Assembly: GCF_003334255.1 (NCBI RefSeq)
Contig: NZ_QOWU01000141.1
Source: Escherichia coli
GTDB lineage: Bacteria; Pseudomonadota; Gammaproteobacteria; Enterobacterales; Enterobacteriaceae
Reading direction: 5' to 3' (one strand)
Length of the DNA: 2,037 nucleotides
Of the stretch, positions 1-1,201 are shown in pieces. Within the stretch, counting starts at the first letter, position 1; every line of letters begins with the position of its first letter. The position numbers and the translations under genes were made by a program. The notes under the pieces were generated by a model. The model worked only from the letters and a program-made list of their open reading frames with translations. It had not been told where the DNA came from and did no database searches.

Positions 1-846
1 AACCAGATGGACCCGGTGTACACGCCGGCGCGAAAAATCCACCTGTACCACTGCGACCATCGCGGCCTGCCGCTGGCGCTCATCAGCACGGAAGGGGCAA
101 CAGCGTGGTGCGCAGAATATGATGAATGGGGCAACCTGCTGAATGAAGAGAACCCGCATCAGCTGCAGCAGCTTATCCGGCTGCCGGGGCAGCAGTATGA
201 TGAGGAGTCCGGCCTGTATTACAACCGCCACCGCTATTATGACCCGCTGCAGGGGCGATATATCACTCAGGATCCGATTGGACTGAAGGGGGGATGGAAC
301 CTGTATGGATATCAATTGAATCCGATATCAGACATCGACCCCCTGGGTTTATCTATGTGGGAGGATGCAAAATCGGGGGCATGTACTAATGGTCTTTGCG
401 GCACACTATCCGCTATGATAGGTCCAGATAAATTTGATTCTATAGATAGCACCGCATATGACGCCTTAAATAAAATAAATAGCCAATCTATTTGCGAAGA
501 TAAAGAGTTCGCTGGTTTAATATGTAAGGATAATAGTGGCAGATATTTCTCAACAGCACCTAACCGAGGAGAAAGAAAAGGATCATATCCATTCAATAGC
601 CCTTGCCCTAATGGTACTGAGAAAGTATCAGCTTATCATACTCATGGTGCAGATAGTCATGGAGAATATTGGGACGAAATATTTTCAGGTAAAGATGAGA
701 AAATAGTTAAAAGTAAAGATAACAATATCAAGTCATTTTATTTAGGTACGCCCAGTGGTAATTTTAAAGCAATAGATAACCACGGGAAGGAAATAACAAA
801 CAGAAAAGGATTACCTAATGTCTGCAGAGTTCATGGTAATATGTAA
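1..846 (+). CDS. rhsA: Rhs-family polymorphic toxin, C-terminal portion (5' end lies upstream of the window): end of conserved core plus variable C-terminal toxin tip
   Basis: The frame is open from base 1 (aac cag atg...), so the M at 7 is internal. The translation ...[35 protein letters not shown]...DIDPLGL is the hallmark end of the E. coli Rhs core. GC is about 58% in bases 1-60 and about 32% in bases 421-480, the typical core/tip contrast. Stop TAA at 844-846. The rhsA symbol is inferred only from the yibA-like gene downstream; the core is nearly identical among rhs paralogues, so it could be another rhs copy. Confidence 0.9.
352..846 (+). other. Variable Rhs C-terminal toxin domain (Rhs-CT), about 165 aa, function unknown
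   Basis: Everything after DPLGL (codons at 337-351) is AT-rich and not recognisably core. It contains 7 cysteines ([37 protein letters not shown]) and a His-rich patch, [16 protein letters not shown] cannot assign a toxin family from sequence alone. Confidence 0.75.
806..810 (+). promoter_or_regulatory. Shine-Dalgarno-like AAGGA for the immunity ORF, located inside the toxin coding sequence
   Basis: AAGGA with a 7-nt spacer to ATG 818. Confidence 0.5.
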
Positions 847-1201
847 AAAAATATTGTTTAGGAACTGTGTCATTGTATCTTTGTTTGTTTTTACATACAA
901 CACATGGGCGCAGTGTAATAATAATATTAAAATAATGCGCAAGTATGAAAGTGAAGGTAAATATACCGTTAGAAATTTGGTTAAAAATAAAGCTATAGCA
1001 TTGGAATTAGCTGAGATATATGTTAAGAATCGTTATGGACAGGATGCCGCAGAAGAAGAAAAACCATACGAAATCACTGAGTTAACAACAAGTTGGGTTG
1101 TTGAAGGTACCATTCACTCAGACCAAATTGCTGGTGGGGTTTTTATTATAGAAATAGGCAAAAATGATGGGAGAATTCTGAATTTTGGCCACGGAAAATA
1201 A
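818..1201 (+). CDS. Putative cognate Rhs immunity protein (RhsI), possibly NTF2-fold-like, with a possible N-terminal signal peptide
   Basis: 127-codon ORF in AT-rich DNA, where chance ORFs are short. AAGGA at 806-810 sits 7 nt before ATG 818. It overlaps the toxin stop by 29 nt, the usual toxin-immunity arrangement. The N-terminus [23 protein letters not shown] is hydrophobic. The C-terminal part ([17 protein letters not shown]...PYEI...SWVVEGT...[22 protein letters not shown]) resembles the motif pattern I recall for NTF2-fold immunity proteins. Alternative starts are ATG 833 and ATG 935. Confidence 0.7.

Follow-up and report, generated by a model that had tools for sequence, protein, structure and literature searches.

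Does the C-terminal tip (CT) of the Escherichia coli protein RhsB attack nucleic acid in the cytoplasm, as papers on its family usually state, or a bond of the cell envelope in the periplasm? We addressed this question in a 2,037-nucleotide (nt) stretch of E. coli DNA (assembly GCF_003334255.1, contig NZ_QOWU01000141.1), hereafter called the window, which holds the 3' end of rhsB, the gene yhhH, a pseudogene and the start of yhhI. E. coli K-12 MG1655 and many further strains carry the window at 100% identity. An earlier description made from the letters alone (the sequence-only reading) had proposed a toxin module at the Rhs C-terminus and an immunity gene next to it, the tip being of a kind that it did not recognise. 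We identified the tip as a DUF4329 (Tox-JAB-2) domain, and we lean, with a little better than even confidence, towards a zinc-hydrolase-fold toxin that acts in the periplasm on an envelope amide or isopeptide bond and is blocked by exported YhhH.

Identity of the RhsB tip

The toxin module of the window comprises the following features:
337-351, plus strand: DPLGL motif, which closes the Rhs core
352..846, plus strand: RhsB-CT toxin tip, 164 residues and stop, 17.9 kDa, isoelectric point (pI) 6.5, 6 Cys
448..804, plus strand: DUF4329 (PF14220), the Tox-JAB-2 domain, with a JAB/JAMM-like fold
818-1201, plus strand: yhhH (RefSeq), Pfam Imm-NTF2-2, a candidate immunity protein of 127 amino acids

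Residues 33-151 of the tip matched Pfam DUF4329 (PF14220) with E=2e-39 and 134.6 bits over model positions 2-114 of 116. Judged by its sequence, nt 352-846 is the toxin tip of E. coli K-12 RhsB and a confident member of DUF4329. The overall arrangement that had been proposed was borne out, with the RHS core upstream, the DUF4329 tip and an Imm-NTF2-2 gene downstream. The tip starts at nt 352 as had been described, its length being 164 residues plus the stop and not about 165, and six cysteines (C11, C16, C48, C58, C85 and C158) were counted where seven had been claimed. It had also rightly been set apart from the characterised nuclease, deaminase and ADP-ribosyltransferase tips; Pfam gave DUF4329 only. 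The description of the tip as unrecognised and uncharacterised holds in its second half, in that we found no paper with a measured activity; the tip itself is recognisable as Tox-JAB-2 by the Pfam match. A confident match to a characterised family had been named as the finding that would overturn the earlier proposal, and the profile search did find a family, DUF4329, which is characterised only in the sense of being catalogued.

The RhsB tip is already known, as part of the annotated K-12 RhsB and of a family catalogued in 2012, and is not a new effector class. Zhang et al. 2012 (PMC3482391) named DUF4329 Tox-JAB-2 and described a deaminase-like JAB fold, the conserved residues 'E, H[ST]H, S, D' and Rhs carriers; they paired it with the immunity family 'Imm-NTF2 family 2' and predicted a nuclease by analogy with RadC. 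The RhsB tip is a founding-type member in its motif, its Rhs carrier and its Imm-NTF2-2 partner. The 2012 account differs from ours in the predicted nuclease activity, in giving Imm-NTF2-2 as 'E. coli only' and in not noting export signals.

Searches of other collections added little. Searched against PDB sequences, the tip and the family profile gave chance or Rhs-core-tail matches only and no solved DUF4329 structure, an NCBIfam search with the tip gave no match, and a PHROGs search with the tip gave only a weak match to a family of unknown function (E=0.005). No known nuclease family was found in the tip by Pfam, NCBIfam or PDB sequence searches. A nucleic-acid deaminase tip, which would share the fold class, was considered and rejected, the [HC]AE ... 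PCxxC zinc motif being absent from the tip.

Predicted active site and cysteines

An exhaustive search of 1.84 billion representatives yielded 757 DUF4329 homologues at E<=1e-3. A word-indexed homologue search gave only E. coli and Salmonella copies, and the family diversity was taken from the exhaustive search. In alignments of 111 and 60 domain segments the residues N43, S46, E52, G55, P70, G73, P86, H96, T97, H98, F111, S112, D115, T133 and P134 were invariant or nearly so. Among them are the residues of a predicted JAMM-type site:
505..507, plus strand: E52, predicted general base (111 of 111 in the local alignment; invariant in the second alignment, A1)
637..645, plus strand: H96-T97-H98, the H[ST]H motif with two predicted zinc ligands (99%, 97% and 99% conserved; above 90% in A1)
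685..696, plus strand: S112-G-K-D115, the SxxD motif (S112 and D115 in 111 of 111 in the local alignment)

S112 is the predicted intermediate stabiliser and D115 the predicted third zinc ligand. All JAMM residue types are present in order, as E52...H96-x-H98...S112-x-x-D115, with a spacer of 13 residues between H98 and S112 versus the canonical 7; the spacer between HxH and SxxD is longer still in the clade fused to VgrG or PAAR. The histidine-rich patch that had been pointed out is present (tip residues 95-109, nt 634-678), and of the five histidines that the tip holds only H96 and H98 are conserved in the family. H103 of SHGE, one of the histidines formerly proposed for mutation, was rejected as a metal-site residue with conservation in only about 5% of homologues.

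C58 and C85 occurred together in 46 sequences and C58 alone in 1, and they are the only widespread cysteines of the family. C11, C16, C48 and C158 were confined to the RhsB/RhsD clade, in which most members have both C48 and C158; both are replaced in P0043. RhsD-CT (P0040) has S at position 158 in the alignment, which its C-terminus '...SSVCIPYHD' suggests to be a misalignment. As many as three disulfide bonds would be in keeping with the cysteine patterns.

Fold of the tip

AlphaFold2 modelled the tip with a predicted local distance difference test score (pLDDT) of 95.0 and a predicted template modelling score of 0.89. Residues 1-24 form a clade-specific, Cys-containing helical extension. 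In structure comparison the tip had an MPN/JAB fold with peptidases as its best matches: PfJAMM1 5ld9, BRCC36 5cw3 and AfJAMM 1r5x scored 8.1 each, followed by the peptidase Cap3 9ild of the cyclic-oligonucleotide-based antiphage signalling system CBASS (7.5), RadC 2qlc (7.3), AMSH-like Sst2 (7.3), Rpn11 homologues (7.1-6.5), CSN5 (6.6-6.4) and BilC (6.4). Cytidine and tRNA deaminases scored about 5 or lower. None of the structural matches was strong enough for a solved DUF4329 structure, and a Foldseek search against viral structures gave generic JAB/RadC-like and unnamed proteins only, with no functional lead. On the predicted model, the 2012 JAB assignment of DUF4329 is independently confirmed.

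YhhH and its export signal

YhhH matched Pfam Imm-NTF2-2 with E=3.4e-26 over residues 60-127 (nt 995-1198); a PDB sequence search with YhhH gave no match. The first 29 nt of its gene lie within the end of rhsB, and a Shine-Dalgarno-like AAGGA stands at 806-810, 7 nt upstream of the ATG; this suggests that toxin tip and immunity protein are translationally coupled.

A signal-peptide-like N-terminus had been noted for the open reading frame (ORF) at 818-1201, and a hydrophobic stretch is indeed present at the start of YhhH. Residues 1-31 (nt 818-910) resemble a Sec signal peptide, with KK, a hydrophobic run and TWA/Q (the slash marks the putative cleavage point) with small residues at -3/-1; the sequence after this point starts QC. 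Close homologues were 42-58% identical in the N-terminal segment versus 75-80% in the mature part, and keep both the hydrophobic N-terminal character and the GWA or TWA end. In the AlphaFold2 model of YhhH residues 1-50 had pLDDT <55, and residues 55-127 formed a folded alpha+beta domain. One YhhH variant (P0235, 22 member sequences) had no hydrophobic core in its N-terminal segment (MSAEFMVWAQCNN...). If YhhH needs export to protect, the variant may leave its strains without immunity or may be a gene in decay.

Partner proteins across the family

Export-type N-termini recurred among the partners of related toxins. YbbC, encoded downstream of the RhsD tip (52% identical to the RhsB tip, with the same six-cysteine pattern), is, like YhhH, an Imm-NTF2-2 protein, and the two are about 50% identical. 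It starts MKYSSIFSMLSFFILFA/C, a lipoprotein-type signal (ILFA/C), unlike the signal-peptidase-I-type signal of YhhH. An Enterobacter-type YhhH homologue has the export-type N-terminus ...LITAIIYLFITSESA/ISS. Genomic context was examined for four metagenomic Rhs-DUF4329 toxins, and each has a downstream protein with an export signal: the Imm-NTF2-2 partners in L004 and L008 have the N-termini MRRSAQLLVSLLLVLGQSVAPAVSSA/RE and KNNKIFMIVFIGSIFYMGVYFG, and the partners in L009 and L010 have MKTVCLLVIAISVVFVVS/C and KSHKVLIIAAFLTFVGLSF/C. Export signals were thus seen in every Imm-NTF2-2 lineage examined. The positions of the two Imm-NTF2-2 genes next to DUF4329 Rhs toxins in environmental metagenomes are 2840-3184 (L004) and 2867-3193 (L008), so the family is not limited to E. 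coli as tabulated in 2012.

The sequence-only reading had linked an oxidising compartment to an exported immunity protein, and the signal or lipobox N-termini of YhhH, YbbC, the Enterobacter-type homologue and the four metagenomic partners support this. What is new here is the consistency of these signals, as judged from sequence, on the partner proteins of the Rhs/Imm-NTF2-2 clade.

The association of DUF4329 with Imm-NTF2-2 holds in the window and not in all clades. DUF4329 was also fused directly to VgrG (L006 394-3660) and to PAAR (L007 2501-3733), and the partner proteins of these two fusions, which are mutual homologues, lack export signals. Between HxH and SxxD the PAAR fusion is longer by about 20 residues, and the clade may differ in target or compartment. 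The notion that toxins with both C58 and C85 (CC-type) always have an exported partner was dropped, as P0129 is CC-type with a non-exported partner and P0059 is Y/C-type with an exported one.

Site of action and proposed mechanism

Export of an immunity protein usually points to a target in the periplasm, and from the export signals of the immunity proteins we infer that the RhsB tip would act there. The 46:1 co-occurrence of C58 and C85 supports an oxidising compartment. The acidic-to-neutral pI (6.5 for the tip, median 6.1 for the DUF4329 family) may speak weakly for the envelope and against a nuclease.

Rhs/TcC proteins release their tip by aspartyl autoproteolysis at a DPxGL-type motif. 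By analogy, the RhsB tip would be enclosed in the Rhs YD-repeat shell and freed by autoproteolysis after DPLGL. It would then be delivered into neighbouring cells in strains with a type VI secretion system (T6SS). According to PMC6730261, T6SS genes are missing from K-12 and B strains, and for this reason the rhsB locus is probably idle in K-12. In the periplasm of the target, where three cysteine pairs could be oxidised, zinc would be held by H96, H98 and D115, water activated by E52 and the intermediate stabilised by S112, and an envelope amide or isopeptide bond would be hydrolysed. YhhH would be exported via its signal peptide and block the toxin in the periplasm of sibling cells. Speculative substrate candidates are stem or cross-link bonds of peptidoglycan, the Lpp-peptidoglycan link or an envelope protein.

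JAMM enzymes are isopeptidases that act on bonds to lysine epsilon-amines, and the closest periplasmic analogues of that chemistry are the Lpp-peptidoglycan link and peptidoglycan cross-links. A sharper version of our proposal, that the Rhs-borne DUF4329 toxins with exported partners are periplasmic JAB isopeptidases cutting the link between the Lpp Lys-epsilon-amine and meso-diaminopimelic acid or a peptidoglycan cross-link, we put forward only tentatively, as a possibility short of likely.

Several points weigh against periplasmic action. Signal peptides were called by eye and hydropathy and not by a trained predictor, the HxH-to-Ser spacing of the predicted site is 13 and not the canonical 7, and we found no paper measuring activity, toxicity or localisation of the tip. 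Zhang et al. (PMC3482391) argued against conservation of the ubiquitin-tail tunnel that JAB peptidases have, and preferred a nuclease role. Three sampled relatives have non-exported downstream proteins (the cadherin-type P0129, the VgrG fusion P0100 and the PAAR fusion P0070), and an in-silico paper tabulates DUF4329 effectors of Salmonella pathogenicity island 6 with a 'No/CdiI' partner, an entry that we take to mean a CdiI-like domain and the absence of a signal peptide. The DUF4329 family may span more than one compartment or substrate, and in view of the non-exported partners we limit the periplasm conclusion to the Rhs/Imm-NTF2-2 clade of this window.

The label in current use, a cytoplasmic nuclease (RNase or DNase) in which the JAB-like domain cuts nucleic acid as proposed for RadC and YhhH neutralises it, appears unlikely to us. 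In the introduction of an eLife paper Tox-JAB-2 appears as one of the 'characterized' nuclease domains, with reference to Ma et al. 2017, and in-silico papers label DUF4329 RNase with the same citation. According to two reviews, only Rhs-CT1, CT3 and CT5 were experimentally tested in Ma et al. 2017, and a 2024 preprint calls activity and substrate 'still unknown'. The 'RNase/DNase' labels go back to a prediction. We found no experiment in support of a nuclease; the literature on DUF4329, Tox-JAB-2, RhsB(-CT), YhhH, YbbC and JAB-type T6SS effectors gave in-silico mentions only, subscription journals being mostly outside our coverage. A nuclease would be expected to have a cytoplasmic immunity protein, and YhhH and its relatives have signal or lipobox sequences by inspection. 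Export of the immunity protein and a nuclease toxin are difficult to square, the periplasm being without nucleic acid substrate. The lack of a nuclease family match in Pfam or NCBIfam, the pI values given above and the peptidases among the best structural matches also argue against it.

Still less likely, in our view, is a JAB peptidase or isopeptidase that stays in the cytoplasm and cuts a specific protein there or a peptidoglycan precursor (UDP-MurNAc-peptide, lipid II), the hydrophobic N-terminus of YhhH serving as a membrane anchor or transit interceptor. The JAMM fold and motif would suit such an enzyme, bacteria have cytoplasmic JAB peptidases in Cap3 and BilC, some clades have non-exported partner proteins, and a precursor present on both sides of the membrane could reconcile both kinds of partner. 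However, the positive charges before the hydrophobic run and the small -3/-1 residues (TWA, GWA, SSA, lipoboxes) indicate that the NTF2-like domain is exported, and an oxidising compartment agrees with the co-varying cysteines.

A decayed or inactive relic, with no current function for the tip, is very improbable: K-12 and B strains are said to be without T6SS genes, the K-12 RhsB N-terminus keeps only a non-significant PAAR trace and the downstream module is a pseudogene cut by ISEc1, but the tip ORF is intact with every catalytic-motif residue, tip and yhhH are also carried by strains of T6SS-carrying pathotypes, and the argument concerns deployment in K-12 and not domain identity.

Comparison with known systems

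The JAMM/MPN+ isopeptidases (AfJAMM, PfJAMM1, Rpn11, CSN5, BRCC36 and AMSH), Cap3 and BilC are 10-20% identical in sequence to the RhsB tip. Unlike these enzymes, the tip has the 13-residue HxH-to-Ser spacer and an extra N-terminal helical region with the invariant N43 and S46; it has no ubiquitin-like partner, and it stands in a secreted-toxin context with probably periplasmic action. RadC-like JAB domains differ in that RadC is cytoplasmic, and Pfam found no specific sequence similarity between them and the RhsB tip. The activity of RadC itself is unsettled.

Tox-JAB-1 of Bacteroidetes, likewise an Rhs tip of JAB fold, offers a parallel in that its immunity protein, Imm65, carries both a signal peptide and a lipobox. 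Tox-JAB-1 belongs to another Pfam family with the motif NxxxE and occurs in Bacteroidetes only. Zhang et al. (PMC3482391) also gave a lipoprotein immunity protein for this sister clade. The T6SS cell-wall effectors Tae/Tai and Tge/Tgi act in the periplasm and have exported immunity proteins, as we propose for YhhH, whereas Tae and Tge have unrelated folds (NlpC/P60, lysozyme-like) and experimentally demonstrated activities.

Organisation of the locus

The remaining features of the window are the following:
1..351, plus strand: rhsB, 3' end of the conserved core (100% identity to MG1655 rhsB; Pfam RHS E=4.3e-16)
37-147, plus strand: PF03527 'RHS protein' (Pfam E=4.3e-16)
844-846, plus strand: stop of the rhsB tip ORF in frame 1 (ORF list; RefSeq has the rhsB 3' end at 846)
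1306-1656 (RefSeq; noted from 1291): yibA-like HEAT-repeat / 'lyase' pseudogene, internal stop at 1549-1551
1797 to the window end at 2037: start of yhhI, ISAs1-family ISEc1 'H-repeat' transposase (RefSeq)

A PxxxxDPxGL motif terminates the Rhs core directly before the tip, at nt 351, where the G+C content drops from 56.7% (nt 1-351) to 36.6% (nt 352-846), the usual signature of an Rhs core/tip boundary. Conservation changes at the same junction. The core matched 5341 genomes versus 2685 for the tip (at least 80% coverage), and tip and yhhH were found at this coverage in 2685 of 5426 complete E. coli genomes, mostly with at least 99% identity. At least 80% of the window was found in 2676 of the 5426.

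The first 500 residues of K-12 RhsB (L001 2611-4110) contain DUF6531 (E=7e-18) and RHS repeats, and of a PAAR domain they show only a non-significant trace, 19 residues that match the end of the motif (E=0.24). In the annotated sequence the PAAR domain looks as if truncated. Several E. coli strains (H1-H3, H16, H30) have IS1 inserted in rhsB near the tip; their annotations give the tip as a 'DUF4329 domain-containing protein' of its own and include chimeric ORFs of IS1 and DUF4329 (P0008, P0009).

The pseudogene at 1291-1656 matches the 'putative lyase' PRK09687 (E=3.5e-31). In strain 98200 (L003 4059-5382) a frameshifted yhhH-like gene is followed directly by an intact yibA of 843 nt, from which we take the pseudogene of the window to be a decayed second, orphan immunity-type module. 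An AT-rich stretch (1690-1796) lies between the pseudogene and yhhI, which appears to close the array downstream of rhsB.

Implications for the DUF4329 family

The pair RhsB-CT and YhhH belongs to the most-studied bacterium and occurs in about half of the complete E. coli genomes. For its family, of which our search gave 757 representative clusters, papers pass on an 'RNase' or 'DNase' label that conflicts with the apparent destination of the immunity proteins. If the nuclease label is right after all, the exported immunity proteins need explaining. If the toxin acts on the envelope, it would represent a new enzymatic class among cell-wall-targeting effectors. Should the more specific reading as periplasmic isopeptidases be true, these toxins would give the JAB/JAMM enzymes their first known members directed at the bacterial cell wall, and the 'RNase/DNase' label on hundreds of annotated effectors would be overturned.
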